Below are positions 17,826 through 28,163 of a stretch of 31,126 bases of DNA, piece after piece (the stretch's first letter is position 1; the number at the start of each line of letters is the position of its first letter). Where the stretch lies: assembly GCA_020632795.1 (NCBI GenBank), contig JACKEV010000010.1, positions 1-31,126 of the forward strand, in the 5' to 3' direction. The DNA is from Alphaproteobacteria bacterium. Lineage in GTDB: Bacteria; Myxococcota_A; UBA796; CAJQPC01. The position numbers were made by a program, and so were the translations under genes. The notes beneath the pieces are model-generated. The model was not told the origin of the DNA. It searched no databases and saw only the letters and a list, made by a program, of their open reading frames with translations.

Positions 17826-18428
17826 ATGAAGCTCCTCCGCTGCCAGCAGTGCGGCGCGCCGGCCCACCCCGAGGCCGACGTGGACCGCTACGAGTGCCCG
17901 TTCTGCCACAGCGTCTTCACCCTCAACCGCCCCAGGCCCGAGGACGACCTCGAGCTGATCGCCGAGACCCTCCGGCCGCCCCCGGCCCCCTCCCGCGCGG
18001 TCGGCGCGCTGATGTTGCTGCCGGTGATCCTGCCGATCTTCATCATCGGCCTCACCGCCTCCATCATCGGCGTCGTCTTCTACCAGGTCGGCCTCATCCA
18101 GCTCCCCTTCTCCACCTGGGACGGCGCCGAGCCCCTGGTCTGCGCCGGCAACGAGCGCATGGAGATCAAGGGCGTCACCGCCCGCCTCCCCTACGGGCCG
18201 GTCATCGAGGCCAACGGCAACTGCCAGCTCACCCTGGTCGAGTGCGTGATCGAGGGCCCCACCGCCATCTACGCTGCGGGCAACGCACGGGTCCGGCTGG
18301 AGCGGGGCTCGGTCACCGGCGCGGACTTCGCCTTCGACCTCGGCGGCAACGCCCAGGTCGAGGTCCGGGGCGCCGCCGTCTCCGGGCCCCGGCGCGCCGG
18401 AGGCAACGCCCGCGTCCACGGCGACTGA
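17826..18428 (+). CDS. Zinc-ribbon membrane protein (CxxC...CxxC N-terminus, one TM helix, C-terminal repeat domain)
   Basis: CQQCG...CPFCH zinc ribbon. TM segment LMLLPVILPIFIIGLTASIIGVVFY. The C-terminal ~110 aa is paralogous to the next gene. Confidence 0.5.
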   Translation: MKLLRCQQCGAPAHPEADVDRYECPFCHSVFTLNRPRPEDDLELIAETLRPPPAPSRAVGALMLLPVILPIFIIGLTASIIGVVFYQVGLIQLPFSTWDGAEPLVCAGNERMEIKGVTARLPYGPVIEANGNCQLTLVECVIEGPTAIYAAGNARVRLERGSVTGADFAFDLGGNAQVEVRGAAVSGPRRAGGNARVHGD

Positions 18429-18434
18429 CCCCCA

Positions 18435-19013
18435 ATGCCCGCGTCCCCCTCCACGACCGCAAACACACCGCCCTACCCCCTCAGGCTGCGGCTGCTGGCC
18501 GGCGCGCTGACCGTGGGTTGGGGCGCCCTGCTCCTCTGGTGGTTCGGAGCCCTCCACGCGCTGGGCTGGATCCCCTGGGACGGCGAGGCGCCGATCGTCT
18601 GCGACGGCCGCACCCACCTCAAGCTCAGCGACGTGCGCGCCGCGCTCCCCGCCGGGCCGGTCATCGAGGCCCGCGGGCACTGCAGGCTGACCCTGGAGGA
18701 CTGCGACATCCGGGGCCCCACCGCCGTCGCCCTCTCCGACAACGCCCACGTCGTGCTGCGGGGGTGCGAGGTCACGGGAGACACCGCGCTCACCCTCAGC
18801 GGAGACGCCGAGGTCACGCTGGAGGACGCCGAGGTCAGCGGTGCGGTCGCTGTCGTGGCCGCCGACCGCTCCGTCGTGCGGCTCCGGTCCGGGCGCATCT
18901 CCGGCGCCCGGATCTCCGTCGATCTGCTCGGAGACGCAATCCTCGTCCACCAGGGCGGCGACGTCCTGGGGCGCGTGCGCACCGCCGACAGCCCGCGGGC
19001 CTACCACGACTGA
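18435..19013 (+). CDS. Paralogous membrane protein (TM helix plus the same C-terminal repeat domain)
   Basis: Shares W-DG-EP-VC-G...LP-GPVIEA-G-C-LTL-C-I-GPTA with the upstream gene. There is a 6-bp gap after the upstream stop. Confidence 0.5.
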   Translation: MPASPSTTANTPPYPLRLRLLAGALTVGWGALLLWWFGALHALGWIPWDGEAPIVCDGRTHLKLSDVRAALPAGPVIEARGHCRLTLEDCDIRGPTAVALSDNAHVVLRGCEVTGDTALTLSGDAEVTLEDAEVSGAVAVVAADRSVVRLRSGRISGARISVDLLGDAILVHQGGDVLGRVRTADSPRAYHD

Positions 19014-19022
19014 CCCACCGGG

Positions 19023-20495
19023 TCAGCGCATCCCGAACCCCCGCAGCTTGCGCTTGAGGGTGTTCCGGTCGATGCCCAGCGCCCGCGCCGCCTGGGAGAG
19101 GTTCCCGTCGAGCTGCGCCAGGGCGTCCGCGATCGCGGCGCGCTCGACCTCAGCCACCCGCTCGACCAGCGGGCGCAGCGGTCCACCCAGGGGCGCCACC
19201 GCCACCCGCACCGGGGCCCCCCGGATCTCCGGGGAGAGGTCCTCCACCGCCACCACATCCTCGCAGAACACCCCCCAGCGGGTCACCTCGGCCCGCAGCT
19301 CCCGCACGTTGCCCGGCCACCGCCAGGACCGCAGCGCGTCCCAGGCCGCCCGCGTCAGCTTCAGGGGCCGCCCCAGCTCCTCCATGAAGTGGGCCACCAG
19401 CCGCTCCAGGTCGCCGCCCCGATCCCGCAGCGCCGGGACCTCGAGGGTCGCGCCCCGCAGCCGATAGTAGAGGTCCTCCCGAAACCGGCCGGCGCGCACC
19501 TCGGACGCCAGGTCCCGGTGGGTCGCCGCGACCACCCGCACGTCCACCCGCACCGGCCGCTCGCCGCCCACCCGACGCAGCTCGCCCTCCTGCAACACCC
19601 GCAGGAGCTGGACCTGCACCCGGGGCGGCATCTCGCCCACCTCATCCAGGAACAGCGTGCCGCCGTCCGCCACCTCGAACAGGCCCCGGCGCCGCCCGGA
19701 GGCCCCGGTGAAGGCCCCCTTCTCGTGCCCGAACAGCTCGCTGGAGAGCACGCCCTCGGCGAACGCCCCGCAGTTCTCGGCGATGAACGGCCCTTCAGCC
19801 CGCGCGCTGGCGGAGTGGATCGCGCGGGCGACCAGCTCCTTGCCCGTCCCGGTCTCCCCATACACCAGCACCGGCACCTCGCTGGGCGCCACCCGGGCCA
19901 GCCTGCGTCGAAGCGTCTGCATGGGCGCGCTCTCGCCGATCATGCGGTCGCTGTCGGCGCGGCGCTCGGCGCGCAGCCGGACCAGCTCCTCGCGCAGGGC
20001 GCGGATCTCCGGGAAGCCCTCGATCTCCAGCCGCACCTCCCGGATGGCCCGGGGGTGGGGGTCTGGTACGAAGGCCGGCGGGATGACCTGGAGCATGCGC
20101 GCCCGGAGCAGCCCCGCCTGCACCAGGATGACCCACAGGGTCTGGGACTGGGGCGTGCCTGCCGAGAGCACCACGTCCAGCTCGGGCGCGCCGCGCAGCT
20201 CCTCGACCAGGGGCGCCAGCCCGAAGAACAGCGCCTCGTGGTCGGTTGGATCCGCCAGATCGATGAGCCGCAGCTCCGCGCGCAGGCCACGCTCCCGCAT
20301 CCGCGCCACCAGGCCCCGAGCGCCCTCCAGCCCCGAGGGGATGCTCAGCACCAGGACCCGGTCGTAGCGCCCCTGGCTCTCCGGCTGGTCGAGGAGCCGC
20401 AGCACAGGCCCCTGATCCGCCGGGTTGTGCGGGAGGGGAGGGCCGGGGACCGGGCGAGGGGCGCCGCGGTCGGACCAGGTGAGCAGCGTGGCCAT
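19023..20495 (-). CDS. rtcR: Sigma54-dependent transcriptional regulator with non-receiver N-terminal domain, RtcR-like (CARF-AAA+-HTH)
   Basis: AAA+ sigma54-interaction domain (GETGTGKE, GAFTGA, ESELFGHEKGAFTGA) and C-terminal Fis-type HTH. The N-terminal ~190 aa lack the receiver D-D-K pattern; the segment DVVLSAGTPQSQTLWVILVQAGLLRARMLQVIPP resembles the CARF domain of RtcR as remembered. ATG at 20495; the track ORF extension to 20861 is not supported. Confidence 0.7.
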   Translation of the reverse strand: MATLLTWSDRGAPRPVPGPPLPHNPADQGPVLRLLDQPESQGRYDRVLVLSIPSGLEGARGLVARMRERGLRAELRLIDLADPTDHEALFFGLAPLVEELRGAPELDVVLSAGTPQSQTLWVILVQAGLLRARMLQVIPPAFVPDPHPRAIREVRLEIEGFPEIRALREELVRLRAERRADSDRMIGESAPMQTLRRRLARVAPSEVPVLVYGETGTGKELVARAIHSASARAEGPFIAENCGAFAEGVLSSELFGHEKGAFTGASGRRRGLFEVADGGTLFLDEVGEMPPRVQVQLLRVLQEGELRRVGGERPVRVDVRVVAATHRDLASEVRAGRFREDLYYRLRGATLEVPALRDRGGDLERLVAHFMEELGRPLKLTRAAWDALRSWRWPGNVRELRAEVTRWGVFCEDVVAVEDLSPEIRGAPVRVAVAPLGGPLRPLVERVAEVERAAIADALAQLDGNLSQAARALGIDRNTLKRKLRGFGMR

Positions 20496-20533
20496 GACCC
20501 CCGAGCCATAGCACAGCCGTTGTCCGCGAGCTT

Positions 20534-20573
20534 GGCCCCCGGGGCTCGGCCCCCGGGGCTCGGCCCCCGGGCC
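20534..20573. repeat. Tandem 14-bp repeat GGCCCCCGGGGCTC (about 2.8 copies) upstream of rtcR
   Basis: Read directly from the sequence; it lies in the rtcR 5' region. Confidence 0.6.
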
Positions 20574-20674
20574 ATCTTCTGTCCGCCATGCGCCCCAGCA
20601 CGACGCATACACGCAAGAGATCAAGCTGAAACCCACCGAATCGAGGTTCCAAAGAACACCACACAAAAAAGTGT

Positions 20675-20702
20675 TTGCACTCTGTCGGTAATGTGGTAAA
20701 AC
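20675..20702 (+). promoter_or_regulatory. Sigma70-like promoter TTGCAC-16-TGgTAAAAC (extended -10)
   Basis: It sits in an unusually AT-rich patch facing the tRNA array. Two GC hairpins follow at 20902-20929 and 20935-20968. Confidence 0.35.
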
Positions 20703-20934
20703 ATCATCGTGGGCCGGGCAGAGGTCCCCCCACACGTCAAAGGAACCTGGCATGTACCGCTTCTCCGCCAACACCCCCTGTATCGCCGAACCCTGGCAGA
20801 CCATTCTGTCCGGTGTGGTGGTGCTCCCTGCCGCCGCCGCAGGCAACATGCCTGCGAGCAAGCGCCCGGGACAGGGTACGGCGGATCAAGCCGAGGGCTC
20901 AGGAAAAACAGCGTAGCAGGCTGTTTTCCTCCAT

Positions 20935-21084: not shown

Positions 21085-21103
21085 GTCTGTATTGAATACA
21101 GAC
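21085..21103. promoter_or_regulatory. Perfect palindrome GTCTGTATT-G-AATACAGAC next to a consensus TTGACA (21123-21128) upstream of the tRNA array
   Basis: 9-bp arms with no mismatch, which is rare in a 70% GC genome. The -35 consensus hexamer is 20 bp downstream and about 100 bp upstream of the first tRNA. Confidence 0.4.
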
Positions 21104-21227: not shown

Positions 21228-21303
21228 GCGCCCGTAGCCAAGCGGTCCATAAGGCACCGGACTCTTAATCCGGCGATCGTGGGTTCGAATCCCACCGGGT
21301 GTA
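21228..21303 (+). tRNA. tRNA-Lys(CTT)
   Basis: Cloverleaf: acceptor GCGCCCG/CGGGTGT (two G-U pairs), anticodon arm CCGGA-CTCTTAA-TCCGG, T-arm GTGGG-TTCGAAT-CCCAC. Confidence 0.75.
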
Positions 21304-21391
21304 CCTCGGTTCTCCACGGGAGATGCTCGCGCAGCGCTCCACGGGAGATGCCTGTCCTGAGCCTCTGCGACCCCGCGTCGCCGAGGCCTGT

Positions 21392-21468
21392 CGGGGTGTA
21401 GCTCAGCCTGGGAGAGCGGCTGGTTCGGATCCAGCAGGTCGTCGGTTCAAATCCGGCCACCCCGACCA
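21392..21468 (+). tRNA. tRNA-Pro(CGG)
   Basis: Acceptor CGGGGTG/CACCCCG, anticodon loop TTCGGAT, T-arm GTCGG-TTCAAAT-CCGGC, encoded CCA. Confidence 0.85.
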
Positions 21469-21520
21469 TCACACGCCTGGAGCGGCCGGTTCTGCACCGG
21501 TCGGTCGCTCCGGGCTCCCT

Positions 21521-21592
21521 GCGGCCGTAGCTCAAAGGTAGAGCACCGTCTTGCCATGGCGGAGGTTGCGCGTTCGAGTCGCGTCGGCCGCT
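21521..21592 (+). tRNA. tRNA-Gly(GCC)
   Basis: Acceptor GCGGCCG/CGGCCGC, anticodon loop TTGCCAT, T-arm GCGCG-TTCGAGT-CGCGT. Confidence 0.85.
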
Positions 21593-21616
21593 TTCGGATC
21601 CACGCAGGGTCCTCGT

Positions 21617-21693
21617 CCGGGTGTAGTTCAGATGCGGAGAACGCCGCGCTGGGAGCGCGGAGGTCGCTGGTTCAAGTCCAGCCACTCGGACCA
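21617..21693 (+). tRNA. tRNA-Pro(GGG)
   Basis: Acceptor CCGGGTG/CACTCGG (one G-U), anticodon loop CTGGGAG, T-arm GCTGG-TTCAAGT-CCAGC, CCA encoded. Confidence 0.8.
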
Positions 21694-21703
21694 TCCCCCT
21701 CAA

Positions 21704-21787
21704 GGCGACGTAGCCAAGCGGAAAGGCACTCGGCTGCAACCCGGGGAGCGCGGCTCCTCCGGAGCGGGTTCAATCCCGCCGTCGCCT
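21704..21787 (+). tRNA. tRNA-Cys(GCA)-like, 84 nt, with a 14-nt insertion before the T-arm and a 6-nt T-loop (variant or pseudogene)
   Basis: Identical to canonical copy 21946..22016 in acceptor (GGCGACG/CGTCGCC, U73), D-arm and anticodon arm (loop CTGCAAC). It carries CTCCTCCGGAGCGG inserted between the variable loop and T-stem, and TTCAAT where the canonical copy has TTCAAAT. Confidence 0.55.
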
Positions 21788-21824
21788 CTTGTTCATGTTC
21801 CAACTGACCCATCACACTTCTCAA

Positions 21825-21908
21825 GGCGACGTAGCCAAGCGGAAAGGCACTCGGCTGCAACCCGGGGAGCGCGGCTCCTCCGGAGCGGGTTCAATCCCGC
21901 CGTCGCCT
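21825..21908 (+). tRNA. tRNA-Cys(GCA)-like, second identical 84-nt copy with the 14-nt insertion
   Basis: Exact 121-bp tandem duplicate (gene plus spacer) of 21704..21824. Confidence 0.55.
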
Positions 21909-21945
21909 CTTGTTCATGTTCCAACTGACCCATCACACTTCTCAA

Positions 21946-22016
21946 GGCGACGTAGCCAAGCGGAAAGGCACTCGGCTGCAACCCGGGGAGCGCGGGTTCA
22001 AATCCCGCCGTCGCCT
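21946..22016 (+). tRNA. tRNA-Cys(GCA), canonical 71 nt
   Basis: Acceptor GGCGACG/CGTCGCC with U73 discriminator (the Cys identity element), anticodon loop CTGCAAC, 4-nt variable loop, T-arm GCGGG-TTCAAAT-CCCGC. Confidence 0.8.
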
Positions 22017-22023
22017 CTTGTCT

Positions 22024-22100
22024 CAAGGTGTAGCTCAGGCGAGGAGAGCGGCTGGTTTGGAACCAGCAGGCCGCCGGTTCGAGTCCGGCCACCTTGACCA
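22024..22100 (+). tRNA. tRNA-Pro(TGG)
   Basis: Acceptor CAAGGTG/CACCTTG, anticodon loop TTTGGAA, T-arm GCCGG-TTCGAGT-CCGGC, CCA encoded. Confidence 0.85.
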
Positions 22101-22116
22101 TCTCTGACGACCACAT

Positions 22117-22188
22117 GCGTCCGTAGCTCAATGGTAGAGCGCTGCCCTCCCAAGGCAGAGGTTGCGCGTTCGAGTCGCGTCGGTCGCT
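22117..22188 (+). tRNA. tRNA-Gly(CCC)
   Basis: Acceptor GCGTCCG/CGGTCGC (one T-T mismatch), anticodon loop CTCCCAA, T-arm GCGCG-TTCGAGT-CGCGT. Confidence 0.75.
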
Positions 22189-22195
22189 TCCCTAC

Positions 22196-22266
22196 AGGGT
22201 CGAGCGCTGGTTGTGTCAGGCGGCCTCCAAAGTCGCCCTGCGAGAGTTCGAATCTCTCCGGCCCTG
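22196..22266 (+). tRNA. tRNA-Trp(CCA) with irregular D-arm
   Basis: Anticodon loop CTCCAAA and T-arm/acceptor GAGAG-TTCGAAT-CTCTC-CGGCCCT-G closely resemble bacterial tRNA-Trp (A1-U72, G73). The D-arm does not fold cleanly by eye. Confidence 0.55.
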
Positions 22267-22285
22267 CTCCTTCATCCAGCACCAC

Positions 22286-22359
22286 AGGCGAGTGGCGCAA
22301 TCGCGGAGCGCACCGCTCTCACACAGCGGAGGTTGCGGGTTCGAGTCCCGCCTCGCCTA
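22286..22359 (+). tRNA. tRNA-Val(CAC)
   Basis: Acceptor AGGCGAG/CTCGCCT, D-stem GCGC/GCGC, anticodon loop CTCACAC, T-arm GCGGG-TTCGAGT-CCCGC. Confidence 0.8.
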
Positions 22360-22389
22360 TCATCCCCAACAAGCCCAGAGGAGGTCCCC

Positions 22390-23484
22390 ATGTCCTCTTT
22401 CGCCGTCAAGGTCGTGCGGCTCCGCGTCGAGCCACACCACAACGCAGATGCCCTCGAGCTGGCGCGCGTGGGCGACTACCTCTCCGTGGTCCGCAAGGGC
22501 CAGTTCAGGACCGGCGACCTCGCCGCCTACATCCCCGAGCAGGCCATCGTCCCCGACGAGCTGCTCGAGGAGATGGGGCTCACGGGGCGCCTGGCCGGCA
22601 AGTTCGCCAACCGCGTCAAGGCCATCCGGCTGCGGGGCGTGCTGTCCCAGGGCCTCTGCTACCCGGCGCGGCCGGAGTGGCCCGAGGGCCTCGACGTGAC
22701 CGAGACCCTGGGCATCGTCAAGCACGAGCCCCCGGTCCCCACGTCGATGGACGGCCAGGCCTGGGCGGCCGGGCTGGACCGCTGCCTGCGCTACGACATC
22801 GAGAACATCAAGCGTTTCCCCGATGTCCTGGCCGACGGCGAGCCGGTCGTCTTCACCGAGAAGATCCACGGCACCTGGACCCAGCTCGGCCTCGTGCCCG
22901 AGGCCTGGGCCCACGCCGAGCACGGTCGGCTGGTCGTCAGCTCGAAGGGGCTCGCCGCGCGCGGCCTGGCGTTCATGCCGAACGCCCAGGAGAACGAGCG
23001 AAACCTCTACCTCCGGGTCGCCCGCACCCTGGACATCGAGGCCCGCCTGGAGGCGGCCTTCAGCGGCACGCTGAGCGCCGACGCGCCGGTCTTCGTCCTC
23101 GGCGAGACCTTCGGCGCGGGCGTCCAGGACCTCGCCTACGGCGCGAACGTCGGCCACGACGCCAGCCTCGGCTTCCGGGTGTTCGACGTCTACGTCGGCG
23201 CGGTCGGCCAGGGGCACTTCCTGGACGACACCGAGCTGGAGGCCGCGTGCCGTGCGCTCAGCCTGGAGCGTGTCCCGGTGGTCTACCGGGGTCCGTTCAG
23301 CCGCGAGGCGCTCGCCGAGCACACCGACGGCCGCGAGCAGGTCAGCGGAGAGGGCAAGCACATCCGAGAGGGTGTGGTCGTCCGACCCGTCCACGAGCGG
23401 CGCCACGACGAGCTGGGCCGCGTCCAGCTCAAGTCGGTGTCCGAGCGCTACCTGCTCCGCAAGGGTGGGACCGAGTACAACTGA
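22390..23484 (+). CDS. ATP-dependent RNA ligase (Rnl2/Rnl5-like nucleotidyltransferase) with N-terminal tRNA-binding OB fold (Myf/Trbp111/CsaA-like)
   Basis: ATG at 22390 with RBS AGAGGAGG. N-terminal VKVVRLRVEPHHNADAL...RLRGVLSQGLC matches the HPNAD...KLRGV.S.GM.C pattern of the tRNA-binding OB domain. FTEKIHGTW is the KxHG lysine-adenylylation motif I of RNA ligases. A hairpin follows at ~23489-23525. The part of the track ORF 5' of 22390 reads through tRNA genes and is rejected. Confidence 0.7.
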   Translation: MSSFAVKVVRLRVEPHHNADALELARVGDYLSVVRKGQFRTGDLAAYIPEQAIVPDELLEEMGLTGRLAGKFANRVKAIRLRGVLSQGLCYPARPEWPEGLDVTETLGIVKHEPPVPTSMDGQAWAAGLDRCLRYDIENIKRFPDVLADGEPVVFTEKIHGTWTQLGLVPEAWAHAEHGRLVVSSKGLAARGLAFMPNAQENERNLYLRVARTLDIEARLEAAFSGTLSADAPVFVLGETFGAGVQDLAYGANVGHDASLGFRVFDVYVGAVGQGHFLDDTELEAACRALSLERVPVVYRGPFSREALAEHTDGREQVSGEGKHIREGVVVRPVHERRHDELGRVQLKSVSERYLLRKGGTEYN

Positions 23485-23561
23485 GACGGCAGCGCGCGGC
23501 GCGGAGACGGGGCCCCCTCGCCTCCGCGCCCCAACCCCGATAGGAGGGGCGGTGAGGATGA

Positions 23562-23634
23562 GGGTTCGTAGCTCAAGCGGTAGAGCAACGGCCTTTTAAG
23601 CCGGCGGTTCCGGGTTCGAGTCCCGGCGGACCCA
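23562..23634 (+). tRNA. tRNA-Lys(TTT)
   Basis: Acceptor GGGTTCG/CGGACCC (one G-U), anticodon loop CTTTTAA, T-arm CCGGG-TTCGAGT-CCCGG. Confidence 0.8.
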
Positions 23635-23662
23635 CCTCCCTCCTGCCCATCGGGGACCCTGT

Positions 23663-23736
23663 TCCCTGGTCGTTCAACGGCAGGACACCTGGCTCTGAAC
23701 CAGGAGATGGAGGTTCGAGTCCTCCCTGGGGGACCA
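23663..23736 (+). tRNA. tRNA-Gln(CTG)
   Basis: Anticodon arm CCTGG-CTCTGAA-CCAGG, T-arm GGAGG-TTCGAGT-CCTCC, CCA encoded. The acceptor TCCCTGG/CTGGGGG needs three G-U pairs. Confidence 0.6.
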
Positions 23737-23768
23737 TCCGCTCGCGTCGGGCGTCATCGACGCAACAT

Positions 23769-23845
23769 GGGGCAGTAGCTCAACTGGGAGAGCGTCGGGC
23801 TGGCAGTCCGAAGGTTGTGGGTTCAATCCCCATCTGTCTCCACCA
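23769..23845 (+). tRNA. tRNA-Ala(GGC)-like with non-canonical acceptor (extra nt in 3' strand)
   Basis: 5' GGGGCAG, D-arm TAGCTCAACTGGGAGAGC, anticodon loop CTGGCAG, T-arm GTGGG-TTCAATC-CCCAT. The 3' strand CTGTCTCC-A-CCA is one nt longer than the CTGCTCC needed to pair with G3-U70. Confidence 0.55.
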
Positions 23846-23877
23846 TCCGCTCGCGTCGGGCGTCATCGACGCAACAT

Positions 23878-23967
23878 GGGGCAGTAGCTCAACTGGGAGA
23901 GCGTCGGGCTGGCAGTCCGAAGGTTGTGGGTCCTCCAGACCGGGTTCACTCCCATCTGTCTCCACCA
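23878..23967 (+). tRNA. tRNA-Ala(GGC)-like, 90 nt, with a 14-nt insertion before the T-arm and a 6-nt T-loop (variant or pseudogene)
   Basis: Identical to 23769 copy through the anticodon arm. It carries TCCTCCAGACCGGG inserted and TTCACT in place of TTCAATC. This is the same pair of changes seen in the Cys-like copies. Confidence 0.5.
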
Positions 23968-23997
23968 TCCGCTCGCGTCGGGCGTCATCGACGCAAC

Positions 23998-24074
23998 ATG
24001 GGGCAGTAGCTCAACTCGGGAGAGCGCCCGGTTCGCATCCGGGAGGTTGTGGGTTCAAGTCCCATCTGTCTCCA
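23998..24074 (+). tRNA. tRNA-Ala(CGC)-like (same non-canonical acceptor)
   Basis: Anticodon arm CCCGG-TTCGCAT-CCGGG, T-arm GTGGG-TTCAAGT-CCCAT. It shares the 5' spacer and acceptor of the 23769 copy. Confidence 0.55.
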
Positions 24075-24107
24075 CCATCCGCTCGCGTCGGGCGTATACG
24101 GCGCAAC

Positions 24108-24180
24108 ATGGGACGGTAGCTCAATCGCGGAGAGCGTCCGGCTTGCACCCGGGAGGCTGCGGGTTCGAATCCCGCCCGCT
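24108..24180 (+). tRNA. tRNA-Ala(TGC)
   Basis: Acceptor GGGACGG/CCGCTCC with G3-U70 and one A-C mismatch, anticodon loop CTTGCAC, T-arm GCGGG-TTCGAAT-CCCGC. The end coordinate is approximate. Confidence 0.65.
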
Positions 24181-24195
24181 CCACTCGCGGCAGAA

Positions 24196-24228
24196 GGGGC
24201 GGCGGCGCATGGGGAGCGCCGCCGCCCC
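24196..24228 (+). terminator. Perfect 13-bp-stem hairpin GGGGCGGCGGCGC-ATGGGGA-GCGCCGCCGCCCC inside the tRNA array
   Basis: Read directly from the sequence. No T-run. It lies between tRNA-Ala(TGC) and tRNA-Gln(TTG). Confidence 0.35.
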
Positions 24229-24237
24229 ACGGGGTCT

Positions 24238-24309
24238 GCGGGGATGGCCAAGCGGCAAGGCGCCGGGCTTTGAACTCGGAGAGCGTGGGTTCGATCCCCA
24301 CTCCCCGTT
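24238..24309 (+). tRNA. tRNA-Gln(TTG)
   Basis: D-arm GCC-AAGCGGCAA-GGC, anticodon arm CCGGG-CTTTGAA-CTCGG, T-arm GTGGG-TTCGATC-CCCAC, acceptor GCGGGGA/TCCCCGT. Confidence 0.7.
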
Positions 24310-24329
24310 CCTCCCCTTCCCATCTCCCC

Positions 24330-24403
24330 GCCGGTGTAGCTCAGTCGGCCAGAGCGCCTGACTCGTAATCAGGAGGTCGCCGGTTCGACTCCGGCCACCG
24401 GCT
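24330..24403 (+). tRNA. tRNA-Thr(CGT)
   Basis: Acceptor GCCGGTG/CACCGGC, anticodon loop CTCGTAA, T-arm GCCGG-TTCGACT-CCGGC. Confidence 0.85.
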
Positions 24404-24411
24404 CTCCATGC

Positions 24412-24483
24412 GCCCGGGTAGCTCAGTGGAAGAGCACCGCACTGGTAACGCGGAGGTCGGGAGTTCGATTCTCCCCCCGGGCA
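24412..24483 (+). tRNA. tRNA-Thr(GGT)
   Basis: Acceptor GCCCGGG/CCCGGGC, anticodon loop CTGGTAA, T-arm GGGAG-TTCGATT-CTCCC. Confidence 0.8.
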
Positions 24484-24487
24484 TTGT

Positions 24488-24560
24488 GCCCGCTTGGCTC
24501 AACAGGCAGAGCATCCGTCTTGTAAGCGGGAGGTTGCGAGTTCGATTCTCGCGGCGGGCA
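24488..24560 (+). tRNA. tRNA-Thr(TGT)
   Basis: Acceptor GCCCGCT/GGCGGGC, anticodon loop CTTGTAA, T-arm GCGAG-TTCGATT-CTCGC. Confidence 0.8.
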
Positions 24561-24569
24561 CTACCTCAT

Positions 24570-24642
24570 GCAGGCGTAGCTCACTTGGAAGAGCGTCGGG
24601 TTTCCACCCCGAAGGTCGCCGGTTCGACCCCGGTCGCCTGCT
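24570..24642 (+). tRNA. tRNA-Gly(TCC)
   Basis: Acceptor GCAGGCG/CGCCTGC, anticodon loop TTTCCAC, T-arm GCCGG-TTCGACC-CCGGT. Confidence 0.8.
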
Positions 24643-24689
24643 CTCACGAGACCCCATGCGTGTTCGCGATGTCACCTCAGGAGGCGGTC

Positions 24690-25277
24690 ATGGACAGCGT
24701 ATTGTTGCTGAACGCAGACTACACCCCATTGAGCGTGCTCGGCTGGCAGCGGGCGGTGAACCTGCTGCTCGACGAGAAGGCCAACGTGGTCGTCGAGTAC
24801 GCCGGTCGCGTCATCCGCTCCCAGTCGTTCGACCTGCCCTGGCCGGCGGTCGTCGCGCTGCACCGGTACCGGAAGCACAGCGAGCGCGTCCGGTTCAACC
24901 GCATCAGCGTGATCGCCCGGGACAGCGCGTCCTGCCAGTACTGCGGGGTCACCCCGAGGGGCCGCAACGGCCGCCTGGCCATCGACGAGCTGACCCTCGA
25001 CCACGTCGTGCCCCGCGCGCGCGCGGTCGACGGCCGGGTCCGGCTGCCGTGGAGCGGCCGTCGGGTGCCGGTGACCTCCTGGGAGAACGTCGTCATCGCC
25101 TGCGAGCCCTGCAACCACCGCAAGGCCGACCGCCTGCCCGAGGAGGCCGGCATGACCCTCCGGCGGCCGCCACACCGCCCGTCGTCCAGGGAGATCCTGC
25201 ACGCGAACCTGCTCCGGGCGAGGATCCCGGAGGAGTGGCGGATGTTCCTGCCCGAGGCGACGCTCCCGCAGAGCTGA
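24690..25277 (+). CDS. HNH endonuclease
   Basis: ATG at 24690 with RBS CAGGAGG; an alternative ATG lies at 24669. HNH signature CQYCG...LDHVVPRAR...N...CEPCNHRKAD (Cys4 zinc plus H-N-H). An intrinsic terminator follows. Confidence 0.75.
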   Translation: MDSVLLLNADYTPLSVLGWQRAVNLLLDEKANVVVEYAGRVIRSQSFDLPWPAVVALHRYRKHSERVRFNRISVIARDSASCQYCGVTPRGRNGRLAIDELTLDHVVPRARAVDGRVRLPWSGRRVPVTSWENVVIACEPCNHRKADRLPEEAGMTLRRPPHRPSSREILHANLLRARIPEEWRMFLPEATLPQS

Positions 25278-26195: not shown

Positions 26196-26281
26196 TGCGT
26201 TTCACATCATCGGTGCTTCCTGAATCACTACGTGTGATGCATAGCGCATCATGACCGGCTGAAACAGCGCGCTGGAGCGGT

Positions 26282-26297
26282 TGGCACGGCGCGTGCT
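26282..26297 (+). promoter_or_regulatory. Sigma54 (-24/-12) promoter TGGCACG-GCGC-GTGCT upstream of rtcB
   Basis: TGGCACG-N4-TTGCW consensus matched except for one position. GG and GC are spaced correctly. It lies about 30 bp upstream of the rtcB ATG. Inverted repeats ATCAC-TACGT-GTGAT and TGATGC-ATAGC-GCATCA lie 30-70 bp further upstream. Confidence 0.55.
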
Positions 26298-26325
26298 TCA
26301 TGATGGGGCATCCACGGAGCCCCTC

Positions 26326-27540
26326 ATGTGCACCCTGCCTGTCCACGCCCGCATCCTCGCCCGCGACGACGTCCGCGTTGAAGGCGACGCCGTCGATCAG
26401 CTCGCCCGCGTGGCGGGCTTCCCCGGCTGCGTGCGGGCTGTCGGCCTGCCGGACCTGCACCCCGGGCCAGGCATCCCCATCGGCGCGGCCTTCGCGTTCC
26501 GCGACGCGGTGTGGCCCGGTCTGGTGGGCGGAGACGCCGGCTGCGGCGCGCGGCTGGTGGCCCTCTCCAAGACCCGGATGCGCGGGGACGCCCTGGAGCG
26601 CCGCGTGCGGGAGTGGACCGAGGGCCCGCCGCTGCCGGACGCCGACCCCGACGCGCTGCTGGCGGCGGTCTGGGCCCGGGGCCCGCGCGGCCTGGCGGAG
26701 GTCCCGGGCGTGCCCGCCTCCCTGGCGGCGCTCGCCGAGGTCGAGGCCCCCGAGCCGGATGGCCCGGTCGCTCCCCTGCCCTTCGAGGGTCGGTTCGGGG
26801 CGTCCCTGGGCACGGTGGGTGGGGGCAACCACTTCGCCGAGATCAGCGAGGTCACCGAGGTGGCCGACAAGCCGCGCGCGCGGGCCCTGGGCCTCCGGCA
26901 CGGCGGGACGGTGGTGCTGGTCCACTCCGGGTCCCGGGGTCTGGGCAAGGCCCTGGCCGATCGGTGGGGCCTGCGGGCGCTGACCGGCGCCGACCAGGCG
27001 CAGTACCTGGGCGAGCTGGCCGGCGCGCTGCGGTTCGCCCGCGCCAACCGGCTGGTCATCGCGTGGAGGCTGCTGGGCGCCCTGGGCTCCGCGCGCCCCT
27101 CCCGCGTCGCCCATCAGGTCGACCTCATCCACAACAGCGTGGTCCGGGGCACCCTGGGCGGGCAGGGGGTATGGGTCCACCGCAAGGGCAGCGCCCCGGC
27201 CGAGGCCGGCCAGCCCACCGTGGTGCTGGGCAGCCGGGGCACGCCGAGCTGGGTGATGGAGGGCACCGGCTCGGAGGACAGCCTGGCCTCGGTGGCCCAC
27301 GGCGCGGGCCGGGCGATGGGGCGCAGCGAGGCGGTGGCCAAGCTCAAGCCGGCCATGACCCGGAAGTCCCTGCTGCGGACCGCGTCAGGGGGGCGGGTCA
27401 TCTGCGACGACCCCGAGCTGCTCTACGCCGAGCACCCCAAGGCCTACAAGCCCATCGGGCCGGTGGTCGACAGCCTGGTGGAGGCCGGGCTGGCCCGGCC
27501 AGTGGCGGCGCTGCTGCCGCAGTTCACGGTGAAGCGATGA
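26326..27540 (+). CDS. rtcB: RtcB-family RNA 3'-phosphate/5'-OH ligase
   Basis: 404 aa. Conserved RtcB metal- and GTP-site motifs DAGCGAR (D-x-GCG), GGGNHFAE (GxGNHF) and HGAGR (HNHAGR-like). ATG at 26326 with GGAG 8 nt upstream. Confidence 0.8.
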   Translation: MCTLPVHARILARDDVRVEGDAVDQLARVAGFPGCVRAVGLPDLHPGPGIPIGAAFAFRDAVWPGLVGGDAGCGARLVALSKTRMRGDALERRVREWTEGPPLPDADPDALLAAVWARGPRGLAEVPGVPASLAALAEVEAPEPDGPVAPLPFEGRFGASLGTVGGGNHFAEISEVTEVADKPRARALGLRHGGTVVLVHSGSRGLGKALADRWGLRALTGADQAQYLGELAGALRFARANRLVIAWRLLGALGSARPSRVAHQVDLIHNSVVRGTLGGQGVWVHRKGSAPAEAGQPTVVLGSRGTPSWVMEGTGSEDSLASVAHGAGRAMGRSEAVAKLKPAMTRKSLLRTASGGRVICDDPELLYAEHPKAYKPIGPVVDSLVEAGLARPVAALLPQFTVKR

Positions 27541-28163
27541 GGCGGCTGTTGCTGGTGTCCGCCGGCACCGGGCCGGTGGAGGTGCGGCGCTTCGTGGCGC
27601 TGCTGGCGGCCTGGTTGGCCGAGGCCTGCGCGTCGCGGGGGCTCGCGGTGCGCTCGGTGACCGTGAGCGGTGAGGACGAGGCGCCGCGGTCGGTGACGCT
27701 GGAGGTCTCGGGCGGGGCGTCGCTGGAGGGCCTGCTGGGGACCCACGCGCTGGTGGCCCGCAGCGCGACCCGGGGCCGCCGCGCCCGCAAGCGCTGGTAC
27801 GCCGGAGTCAGCGCGCACGACGCGCCCGTCGGGGCTGCGGTGGAGGTCGACCCCTCGGAGGTGAGCTTCACCGCGTGCCGGGCGGGGGGCCCCGGCGGGC
27901 AGCACGTCAACACCACCGCCAGCGCGGTGTGGGCCACCCATGGGCCCACCGGGCTGCGGGTACGTGTCGCCAGCGAGCGCTCCCAGCACGCCAACCGGAG
28001 GATCGCCCTGGCGCGGCTGGCGGAGGTGCTCGCCTCGCGGGACGCTGAGAAGCGCGCGGTGGGCCGGGACCGGCGATGGCGCTCCCACCATCGCCTGGAA
28101 CGGGGGCGTCCGGTGCGGACCTGGGGGCTGGATCCCGGTGGGGCTGCGCTGGTGGAGCGCTGA
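27537..28163 (+). CDS. prfH: Peptide chain release factor homologue PrfH (RF-H)
   Basis: 208 aa. GGQ motif (GGPGGQHVNTTASAV) in a short class-I RF-like fold. The start overlaps the rtcB stop (ATGA), the canonical rtcB-prfH coupling. Confidence 0.75.
   Translation: MRRLLLVSAGTGPVEVRRFVALLAAWLAEACASRGLAVRSVTVSGEDEAPRSVTLEVSGGASLEGLLGTHALVARSATRGRRARKRWYAGVSAHDAPVGAAVEVDPSEVSFTACRAGGPGGQHVNTTASAVWATHGPTGLRVRVASERSQHANRRIALARLAEVLASRDAEKRAVGRDRRWRSHHRLERGRPVRTWGLDPGGAALVER

Follow-up and report, generated by a model that had tools for sequence, protein, structure and literature searches.

A recurrent YUCCR hairpin module in class-I tRNA genes of bacterial tRNA arrays

Introduction

Why should two unrelated transfer RNA (tRNA) genes of one bacterial array carry the same small insertion at the same place? 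The question is raised by a stretch of 31,126 nucleotides (nt) on contig JACKEV010000010.1 of assembly GCA_020632795.1, referred to here as the window, in which two tRNA-Cys(GCA) genes and one tRNA-Ala(GGC)-like gene are longer than the uninserted copies beside them. An earlier note on this DNA had drawn attention to the three copies and had proposed class-II-like variants or patterned pseudogenes. Arrays of tRNA genes beside RNA-repair genes are thought to serve as a reserve for translation when toxins or antibiotics impose stress, and irregular genes within them are usually set aside as pseudogenes. In the present case, a defined hairpin module with a co-varying stem recurs in five tRNA families. 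The module is a real and patterned feature in its existence, recurrence, anatomy, covariation and genomic context. Here, we describe it and weigh what may have produced and kept it.

Module-bearing tRNA genes in the window

A check of the sequence bears out the three inserted copies and the canonical copies near them (Table 1). The inserted tRNA-Cys genes differ from their canonical neighbour solely by a 14-nt insertion and by one A lost from TTCAAAT, and the tRNA-Ala-like gene differs from its own by a 14-nt insertion, an A58 to C change and the loss of one C. Outside the T-arm, all three are identical to the nearby canonical copies; the anticodon arms are intact, as are the Cys identity elements (U73, GCA). 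Exact matches to TCCTCCRGASCGGG in the window are confined to these three inserted sites. Covariance-model scoring with the Rfam tRNA model (RF00005, gathering score 29 bits) places all three above that score and below the canonical copies: 50.0 bits for both Cys copies vs 65.6, and 42.0 bits for the Ala copy vs 57.3. The inserted tRNA-Pro genes of a related genome described below also exceed the gathering score (37.7 and 37.8 bits), and the Cys, Ala and Pro copies lie 15-27 bits under their own canonical neighbours. In the Infernal alignment, the Cys insert is assigned to the variable loop, and the Ala copy retains its parental T-stem with 19 nt assigned to the T-loop.

The Cys copies form part of a 121-nt tandem repeat (2.5 copies, 100% identical, 36-nt spacers included), and the Ala genes form part of a ~109-nt repeat. 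All three long copies genuinely belong to a tRNA-array operon on the chromosome.

Two further observations concern the Ala family. Its four genes share one preceding spacer with the inverted repeat GCGTCG ... CGACGC (23741-23768, 23850-23877, 23972-23999 and 24082-24109), which could be a processing signal or merely part of the duplication unit. In the register called by ARAGORN, the four tRNA-Ala-type genes (23769-24184) show G2.U71, G4.U69 and C73. The alanine identity of these copies is uncertain, because G3.U70 and A73 are obtained only in a shifted register that carries two mismatches; the Ala genes of the related genome have a normal G3.U70.

Recurrence of the module in related arrays

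The earlier note had argued that the change is patterned and does not reflect random decay, and the relatives agree: the module occurs in five tRNA families (Cys, Ala, Pro, Asp and Thr) from four independent assemblies, a search of relatives for the insert at or near the T-arms of other tRNAs having found it in Pro (L001), Asp (L098) and Thr (L261) genes. The consensus is (G)NNN-YUCCR-N'N'N'-CG, 13-14 nt long and followed by GG, in which the loop and the tail are constant and the stem co-varies. L001 is a syntenic metagenome-assembled genome (MAG; GCA_020632815.1) with a ligase 74% identical to that of the window and a 22-gene array, in which two 87-nt inserted tRNA-Pro(CGG) genes lie beside a canonical 74-nt copy (64.5 bits). 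L098 (GCA_020632765.1), with an HNH protein ~60% identical, has the gene order Asp-Phe-Asp-Phe-Asp*-Phe, where Asp*(GTC) is the inserted copy of 87 nt. L261 is a JGI contig (HNH 62% identical) whose 10-gene array includes an 89-nt tRNA-Thr(CGT). All three arrays adjoin a homologous HNH gene.

A module-bearing gene is present in 4 of 4 arrays beside HNH homologues at least 59% identical (the window, L001, L098 and L261) and in 0 of 14 arrays (6-30 tRNAs each, on metagenome or viral contigs) beside more distant HNH homologues (Fisher's exact test, ~3e-4). The HNH gene, and not the ligase, is the good anchor, because loci of ligase homologues held few tRNAs: 80 species genomes with such homologues and several Logan contigs had 0-2 tRNAs nearby, the syntenic MAG L001 being the single exception among the ligase-anchored genomes. 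No conserved partner gene was found downstream of the HNH gene in L098, L261 and L100.

A strict form of the motif (three paired bases, a CTCCR loop and a CGG tail) gave 46 matches in the 2.05 megabases fetched, mostly from high-GC (guanine plus cytosine) loci and on both strands, or ~1e-5 per position. The Cys, Ala, Pro and Asp copies account for six of the 46, each located where variable loop and T-stem meet in an over-long class-I tRNA, and the remainder all fall in coding sequence. When the motif was relaxed and a T-loop-like motif was required downstream, only the Thr copy and one true tRNA-Ser variable arm were added. A JGI metagenome scan with one narrow Cys/Ala-type pattern gave 0 matches, three IMG/VR pattern scans gave only chance matches inside coding sequence and none in a tRNA, and a 28-mer of the shared array tRNA-Lys had 0 viral matches.

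The HNH family (~195 amino acids) also adjoins arrays of 11-30 tRNA genes on other metagenome and viral contigs (L110, L123, L124, L163, L181, L193, L198, L235, L245 and L258). Class-I isotypes (Thr, Asn, Ile-UAU, Pro) of 84-96 nt occur in other HNH-linked arrays, mostly on viral contigs (Table 1). The one that was checked, the Thr gene of L258, has a true long variable arm and a canonical T-arm, and the YUCCR module is in none of these 84-96-nt tRNAs; they look like a phenomenon separate from the module. L261 also holds a class-I-shaped tRNA with a short variable loop and a GUA (Tyr) anticodon, left unassigned by ARAGORN (1133-1208), whereas bacterial tRNA-Tyr is normally class II.

Anatomy and folding

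The alignments place the module at the variable-loop/T-stem junction, where it separates nt 51 from nt 52 on the 5' strand of the T-stem. Two readings of the fold were compared on a four-sequence alignment. In Model A, the hairpin is extruded from a parental T-stem whose 5' strand is interrupted after nt 51 and resumes at nt 52. All 34 of its 34 cells form standard pairs, and both-sided changes are seen in 6 of 9 pairs, three of them in the insert hairpin and three in the parental T-stem, where they are between-family differences expected anyway. None of 500 shuffles equalled this result, and slid controls were 37-56% paired. Model B takes the hairpin as a variable arm, with N+CGGG supplying the T-stem; here, pairing reaches 92.9% of cells, and two pairs fail in Ala. 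By nearest-neighbour energies, Model B is the better for Pro and Asp, Model A is slightly the better for Ala, and Cys shows almost no difference. The solid part of the predicted anatomy is the covariation within the hairpin (CUC/GAG, GUC/GAC, CCG/CGG and CUG/CAG), and a compensated flip from C-G to G-C separates the two window modules. The extra hairpin that the earlier note placed at the variable-loop/T-stem junction is thereby retained, and the GGAG/CTCC pairing with upstream sequence that it drew for Cys is not, because the comparison favours the within-insert hairpin CUC-CUCCG-GAG.

The Asp copy suggests that the module travels with its own T-arm, because its T-stem is compensated and its 3' third is far more diverged than the rest. 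This T-stem (ACG and GG, split by the module, opposite CCCGT) differs from that of the canonical neighbour (GCGAG / CTCGC) by two compensated pairs, and the two genes differ at 7 of ~35 nt 3' of the insert vs 2 of ~45 nt 5' of it. The T-loops have 6 nt in the window copies, 7 nt with G54 in Pro (GTCGAGT) and Asp (GTCGAAT), and the canonical form in Thr (TTCGAGC). A two-part change, in which the insertion comes with the loss of 1 nt from the T-loop, is accordingly a property of the window Cys and Ala copies and does not extend to Pro, Asp and Thr.

A class II form, also put forward for the window copies, does not stand: the hairpin borders directly on the T-stem or breaks it up, it is preceded by 8-9 unpaired nt, and the isotypes and discriminator bases are wrong. 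In class II tRNAs, 1-2 nt lie between the anticodon stem and the helix of the variable arm, and this helix is set apart from an intact T-stem of 5 base pairs (bp). Here, the long unpaired spacer is present in 4 of 5 families, and the 3' arm of the hairpin overlaps the only possible proximal T-stem, where Ala has 2 mismatches in 5. Only the L261 Thr gene has the canonical 7-nt T-loop (T54-Psi55-C56-R57-A58). In place of a Leu, Ser, Tyr or Sec identity, the genes have the anticodons GCA, GGC, CGG, GTC and CGT with mixed discriminator bases. Nor do the Cys and Ala copies have the 8/4 or 9/3 arrangement of allo-tRNAs, in which a lengthened acceptor stem and a shortened T-stem add up to a 12-bp branch: by manual pairing, their acceptor stem is 7 bp, and positions 8/9 do not pair with the 3' strand.

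Several other identities were considered and rejected. An archaeal bulge-helix-bulge intron has two 3-nt bulges on opposite strands and a 4-bp helix between intron and 3' exon, and manual inspection of every module found no complementarity between the opening 4 nt of the insert and the 3' exon. Bacterial group I tRNA introns are self-splicing, ~200 nt or more, and lie in the anticodon loop; the insert has only 13-14 nt and lies at the T-stem, and Rfam gave no intron family. With a fold-back or P-nucleotide palindrome templated by the flank, Thr agrees fully and Ala in part, and Cys, Pro and Asp do not. A target-site duplication, with a repeat of 4 nt and an insert of 10 nt, would account only for Cys, Ala and Thr, an appearance that arises because the G-rich tail mimics the T-stem. 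A partial duplication of Cys nt 39-60 is Cys-specific. As a mimic of the anti-Shine-Dalgarno sequence, CCUCC is found in the window modules only, the others having GCUCC or CUUCC, and as a mini anticodon loop of tRNA-Gly(UCC) the module has C in place of U33 in 4 of 5 families. Pairing of the loop with the D-loop of the same tRNA (8 nt) is limited to Thr, and a PyrR-type UCCAGAG loop to Ala and Thr.

Source organism and array setting

The window is chromosomal, high-GC DNA (65-78%) with housekeeping genes for ArgC, ArgB, MscS, acetyl-CoA synthetase, lipoxygenase and a DUF481 outer-membrane protein. Proteins encoded in this region match those of a MAG labelled 'Alphaproteobacteria bacterium' by NCBI (760-kb contig), and their nearest relatives are in Nannocystaceae and other Myxococcota. 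The source is probably an uncultured Myxococcota bacterium, as are those of the other module-bearing assemblies. With respect to a phage origin, megablast gave no match for the array.

The array has 22 tRNA-type genes in 3.4 kb, or ~6 per kb with the open reading frame of the ligase included, and tRNA array units or L-arrays are defined by at least 20 tRNA genes and at least 2 per kb. It is part of an RNA-repair island, in which a ligase gene lies within the array and HNH, RtcB and PrfH genes follow; the order 3' of the array is HNH, a terminator-like hairpin, MarR, RtcB and PrfH. The embedded ligase is related to Naegleria NgrRnl structures. As such, the array is a known kind of stress- and repair-linked long tRNA array (PMC8421152). 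The layout of the island is shared by L001.

Upstream of the array lies a divergent gene for a sigma-54 activator with weak similarity to RtcR (19023-20861, minus strand), and no sigma-54 promoter above chance was found upstream of the array. A perfect 17-nt palindrome, TCTGTATTGAATACAGA, at 21086-21102, ~125 nt upstream of the first array tRNA, is a possible operator; a MarR gene lies downstream of the array. Two adjacent paralogous open reading frames (17826-18428 and 18435-19013) are ~41-44% identical locally and gave no significant Pfam match, with one sub-threshold match only. A tRNA-Trp(CCA) called by ARAGORN at 22196-22267 has an unusual D-arm and no match to the Rfam tRNA model, its best match being tRNA-Sec at 25 bits, below threshold; the counterpart in L001 reaches only 30.9 bits.

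Table 1. Features of the window array, the five modules with their flanks, and over-long class-I tRNAs of other arrays
Feature	Position	Strand	Basis or remark
tRNA array, split by RNA ligase gene	21228..24643	+	21 ARAGORN tRNAs plus the Ala-like copy (Rfam tRNA model only)
tRNA-Cys(GCA) with hairpin module, copy 1, 85 nt	21704..21788	+	ARAGORN; Rfam tRNA
Module, Cys copy 1 (G-CTC-CTCCG-GAG-CG)	21753..21766	+	sequence, alignment
G52 G53, Cys copy 1	21767-68
T-loop TTCAAT, 6 nt, Cys copy 1	21769-74
CCCGC, Cys copy 1	21775-79
tRNA-Cys(GCA) with hairpin module, copy 2	21825..21909	+	ARAGORN; Rfam tRNA; identical to copy 1
Module, Cys copy 2	21874-21887	+	identity with copy 1
Canonical tRNA-Cys(GCA), uninserted paralogue	21946..22017	+	Rfam tRNA
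ATP-dependent RNA ligase, DRB0094/NgrRnl (Rnl5-like) family, inside array	22390..23484	+	profile match TIGR02306, 242 bits
Canonical tRNA-Ala(GGC), uninserted paralogue	23769..23841	+	Rfam tRNA
tRNA-Ala(GGC)-like with hairpin module	23878..23963	+	Rfam tRNA; missed by ARAGORN
Module, Ala copy (G-GTC-CTCCA-GAC-CG)	23929..23942	+	sequence, alignment
GG, Ala copy	23943-44
T-loop TTCACT, 6 nt, Ala copy	23945-50
CCCAT, Ala copy	23951-55
HNH endonuclease-family protein, directly 3' of array	24690..25277	+	homologues flank other module-bearing arrays
RtcB, release-factor-linked subtype	26281-27540	+	paired with PrfH
PrfH	27537-28163	+	paired with RtcB
Module and flanks, Cys, window			GCG G CTC CTCCG GAG CG GG TTCAAT CCCGC
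Module and flanks, Ala, window			GTG G GTC CTCCA GAC CG GG TTCACT CCCAT
Module and flanks, Pro, L001			GCA - CCG CTCCG CGG CG GG GTCGAGT CCTGC
Module and flanks, Asp, L098			ACG - CTG CTCCA CAG CG GG GTCGAAT CCCGT
Module and flanks, Thr, L261			AG GTC TTCCA GAC CG GG TC GGGG TTCGAGC CCCAC
84-96-nt class-I isotype, L258	683-863	-
84-96-nt class-I isotypes, L198	3370-3458, 4018-4107
84-96-nt class-I isotype, L166	273-364
84-96-nt class-I isotype, L245	1856-1951

A selected module or a by-product of recombination

The reading that we put first, tentatively and at somewhat less than even confidence, is that the module is kept by selection and gives rise to five-armed, poorly decoding tRNA-like RNAs, which may be tagged or decoy tRNAs. 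An ordinary class-I tRNA gene would carry the discrete 13-14-nt module, whose RNA is predicted to fold into a 3-5-bp hairpin with the constant YUCCR loop. In the cell, the parental T-stem may close around this hairpin to give a three-way junction; alternatively, the G-rich tail of the module may replace the 5' strand of the T-stem, leaving the hairpin as a variable-arm-like fifth arm. Recombination would move the module among the tRNA genes of the array, and a sequence-specific constraint, that is, selection on the RNA, would maintain it. We infer such selection because the loop and the tail are constant, the stem co-varies, and every array of the HNH clade has at least one copy, in differing isotypes. 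The tRNA bodies are intact and near-identical to functional-looking neighbours, and the inserted copies are themselves duplicated, which supports a selected module. Because the module recurs in four independent assemblies and its stems co-vary, random decay and errors of assembly are excluded. Most likely, the inserted genes are transcribed together with the rest of the array and yield tRNA-like RNAs. Inefficient decoding is expected because the elbow is damaged (6-nt loop or G54) and the T-stem surface read by EF-Tu is interrupted. The inserted RNAs would then serve an accessory role, as hairpin-tagged tRNAs or as decoys, for a protein or toxin of the RNA-damage response encoded nearby, and within an operon of RNA-repair genes such a role is the most economical guess from sequence and context.

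A number of observations weigh against a selected module. The T-loops are non-canonical, and relaxed constraint would give the same result; acceptor-stem mismatches are present in 3 of 5 families (Pro G3.A70, Asp U6.U67 and Thr U5.U68). Unconstrained minimum-energy folds are not cloverleaves, and the Cys insert pairs strongly with the 3' strand of the anticodon stem (-48 vs about -30 kcal/mol). In the tRNA-Thr of L261, the module sits within the variable loop and not in the T-stem, and L098 and L261 have the HNH gene with no ligase near the array. There are only five distinct modules, from metagenome assemblies throughout. No two of the genomes share an orthologous inserted gene, each inserted gene being closest to its own canonical neighbour.

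A selected module and patterned pseudogenes remain close, and the latter are a serious, if doubtful, possibility. Here, a segment comprising the hairpin and the T-arm would have been copied into redundant class-I genes by illegitimate recombination or gene conversion, from a donor itself under selection (such as a Ser-type variable arm) or from another inserted copy; the array would be recombinationally hyperactive, and the chimeras would be neutral or mildly harmful by-products without a function of their own. Such an origin agrees with the lower model scores, the copy missed by ARAGORN, the non-canonical T-loops and the acceptor mismatches in 3 of 5 families, and the Asp copy has a 3' segment more diverged than its 5' part, as for an imported 3' segment. 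Each insertion event also looks recent, because the inserted genes are unshared and each is nearest to its own canonical neighbour. Arrays of this kind are known for pseudogenes and for frequent insertions, duplications and deletions (PMC8421152), and the same arrays contain other broken tRNA-like genes (L001, 4028-4115 and 6390-6481). Of these two aberrant members of L001, one resembles tRNA-Gly(GCC), has a T-loop of 6 nt and is extended by 14 nt between its T-arm and the 3' strand of its acceptor stem; the other resembles tRNA-Gln and is broken at its 3' end. In L181, a viral array, a tRNA-Ser(CGA) at 2793-2881 has the variable arm GCGC-UCC-GCGC, 10 of 13 positions identical to the Pro module, and judged by this likeness a Ser-type variable arm is a possible evolutionary source or donor of the hairpin. 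However, no donor was found in any fetched locus, the position of the hairpin is unlike that of a true class II arm, and working tRNA-Ser donors would not be expected to have 6-nt or G54 T-loops. A neutral process alone leaves unexplained the constant loop and tail and the perfectly co-varying stems in five modules, as well as the presence of at least one copy in every array of the HNH clade. It also fails to account for the compensated flip between the window modules, whose hosts are 100% identical to their neighbours.

It is unlikely that the copies are working long-arm decoders, in which the hairpin is the variable arm and the tRNA is charged by its own synthetase, or mischarged by seryl-tRNA synthetase, in the manner of allo-tRNAs or nematode nev-tRNAs, and used in translation. 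ARAGORN folds 4 of 5 as long-variable-arm tRNAs, and when the hairpin is taken as the variable arm, the variable region has 18-19 nt in 4 of 5 (~16 in Thr), compared with 18 nt in the tRNA-Ser of L181. The anticodon arms and the Cys identity elements are intact, and arm-bearing tRNAs with class-I anticodons are known from earlier work (PMC5389517; PMC3333845). These points are outweighed by a T-loop of 6 nt or with G54 in 4 of 5 families and by a hairpin that overlaps the T-stem, with 8-9 unpaired nt before it and no spacer after it. A proximal T-stem is ruled out in the Ala copy (2 of 5 pairs fail), the discriminator bases (U, C/A, A, G, U) give no consistent Ser identity, and the acceptor stems carry mismatches.

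Quite improbable, too, is a protein-spliced mini-intron, in which a nuclease leaving 3'-OH and 5'-phosphate ends, the HNH protein being the candidate, would excise the hairpin and the array ligase would seal the nick in the T-stem. The more specific proposal, that tRNA precursors of this clade with a hairpin-interrupted T-stem are matured by HNH excision and sealing by the Rnl5-type ligase, is very improbable. In chemical terms the idea is coherent: the parental T-stem bridges the insert in 4 of 5 families, so excision would leave a nicked duplex, and the embedded ligase belongs to the DRB0094/NgrRnl family, members of which seal 3'-OH/5'-PO4 nicks in duplexes. This HNH family is fused to the RNA ligase in one protein (P0038, 516 amino acids), and the tRNAs reach normal length once 13-14 nt are subtracted. 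Against this, no bulge-helix-bulge motif can be drawn by manual checking, excision would still leave a 6-nt or G54 T-loop, and the Thr module is located in the variable loop. The two arrays that lack a nearby ligase (L098, L261) count here as well, the HNH family flanks many module-free arrays, and HNH enzymes usually cut DNA.

An assembly or sequencing artefact in repeated DNA is scarcely credible: all sources are metagenome assemblies, the copies lie within tandem repeats, and a separate Logan assembly of this sample (L097) ends within the Ala repeats and leaves the inserts uncovered, but four independent assemblies, each from another project, have this structured module in different tRNAs and with differing stems, and artefacts do not yield co-varying hairpins.

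Implications

If the module is functional, it would be a natural means of tagging or disabling tRNA scaffolds and would provide a handle on the substrates of the array-linked HNH protein and of the orphan NgrRnl/DraRnl-type ligases. If the copies are pseudogenes, the module records an unusually specific recombination process at the T-arm. Were the splicing explanation true, it would represent the first protein-catalysed tRNA splicing pathway in bacteria and a natural substrate for DRB0094/NgrRnl ligases. For annotators, it is of practical importance that module-bearing copies pass tRNA models at 38-50 bits.

Comparison with known systems

Long tRNA arrays linked to HNH and RtcB are induced by translational stress, and a sponge role has been proposed for their tRNAs (PMC8421152). 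The window array resembles those reported in 2021 (PMC8421152) and by Tran et al. 2016 (PMC4758250) in its dense polycistronic cluster, its adjacent HNH and its RtcB, as well as in its tandem duplications and some aberrant members. Unlike them, it lies in a Myxococcota-like genome, has an Rnl5-type ligase inside and is accompanied by an RtcB-PrfH pair; a shared T-stem hairpin module is not described in these papers.

Irregular tRNA polycistrons, 'E-loop' tRNAs and allo-tRNAs with possible five-stem junctions (Mukai et al. 2017, PMC5389517) are likewise clustered bacterial tRNA-like genes with an extra loop or arm. In that work, some of these extra-arm RNAs are charged yet unused in translation, and some are probably non-translational; the allo-tRNAs have an 8/4 or 9/3 acceptor/T-stem and a Sec/Ser-like class II origin, whereas the genes described here are 7/5 class-I tRNAs with a module of fixed YUCCR loop. 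Class II tRNAs (Leu, Ser and bacterial Tyr) and the nematode nev-tRNAs (PMC3333845) also have an extra stem-loop between the anticodon arm and the T-arm, and in one reading the total variable region here is ~18 nt, as in class II tRNAs. In contrast to both, the hairpin touches or interrupts the T-stem, follows a long unpaired 5' spacer and comes with a damaged T-loop. The bodies are those of class-I genes, identical to canonical neighbours, and not those of class II genes whose anticodon has changed.

Short archaeal tRNA introns at non-canonical positions were reportedly found by Fujishima and colleagues in 2010 to have spread between tRNA genes in Thermoproteales. They resemble the module as related inserts of ~12-20 nt across tRNA families, including the T-arm, and here RtcB is encoded nearby. 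They differ in that no bulge-helix-bulge is present here and excision would not restore a canonical T-loop. We know of no splicing endonuclease in bacteria.

Engineered tRNAs tolerate a hairpin aptamer tag, according to Mukai 2020 (PMC7590224). Such a tag is likewise a small hairpin on a tRNA scaffold; it binds protein and leaves the scaffold intact. It is synthetic and placed in the true variable arm of an allo-tRNA, unlike the natural module described here. Full-text searches on Myxococcota tRNA arrays and T-stem hairpin insertions found no description of a shared YUCCR hairpin at the T-stem of class-I tRNAs. Arrays, extra-arm tRNAs and engineered tags were already known; what is new here is a set of non-canonical tRNA-array members that share a YUCCR hairpin.

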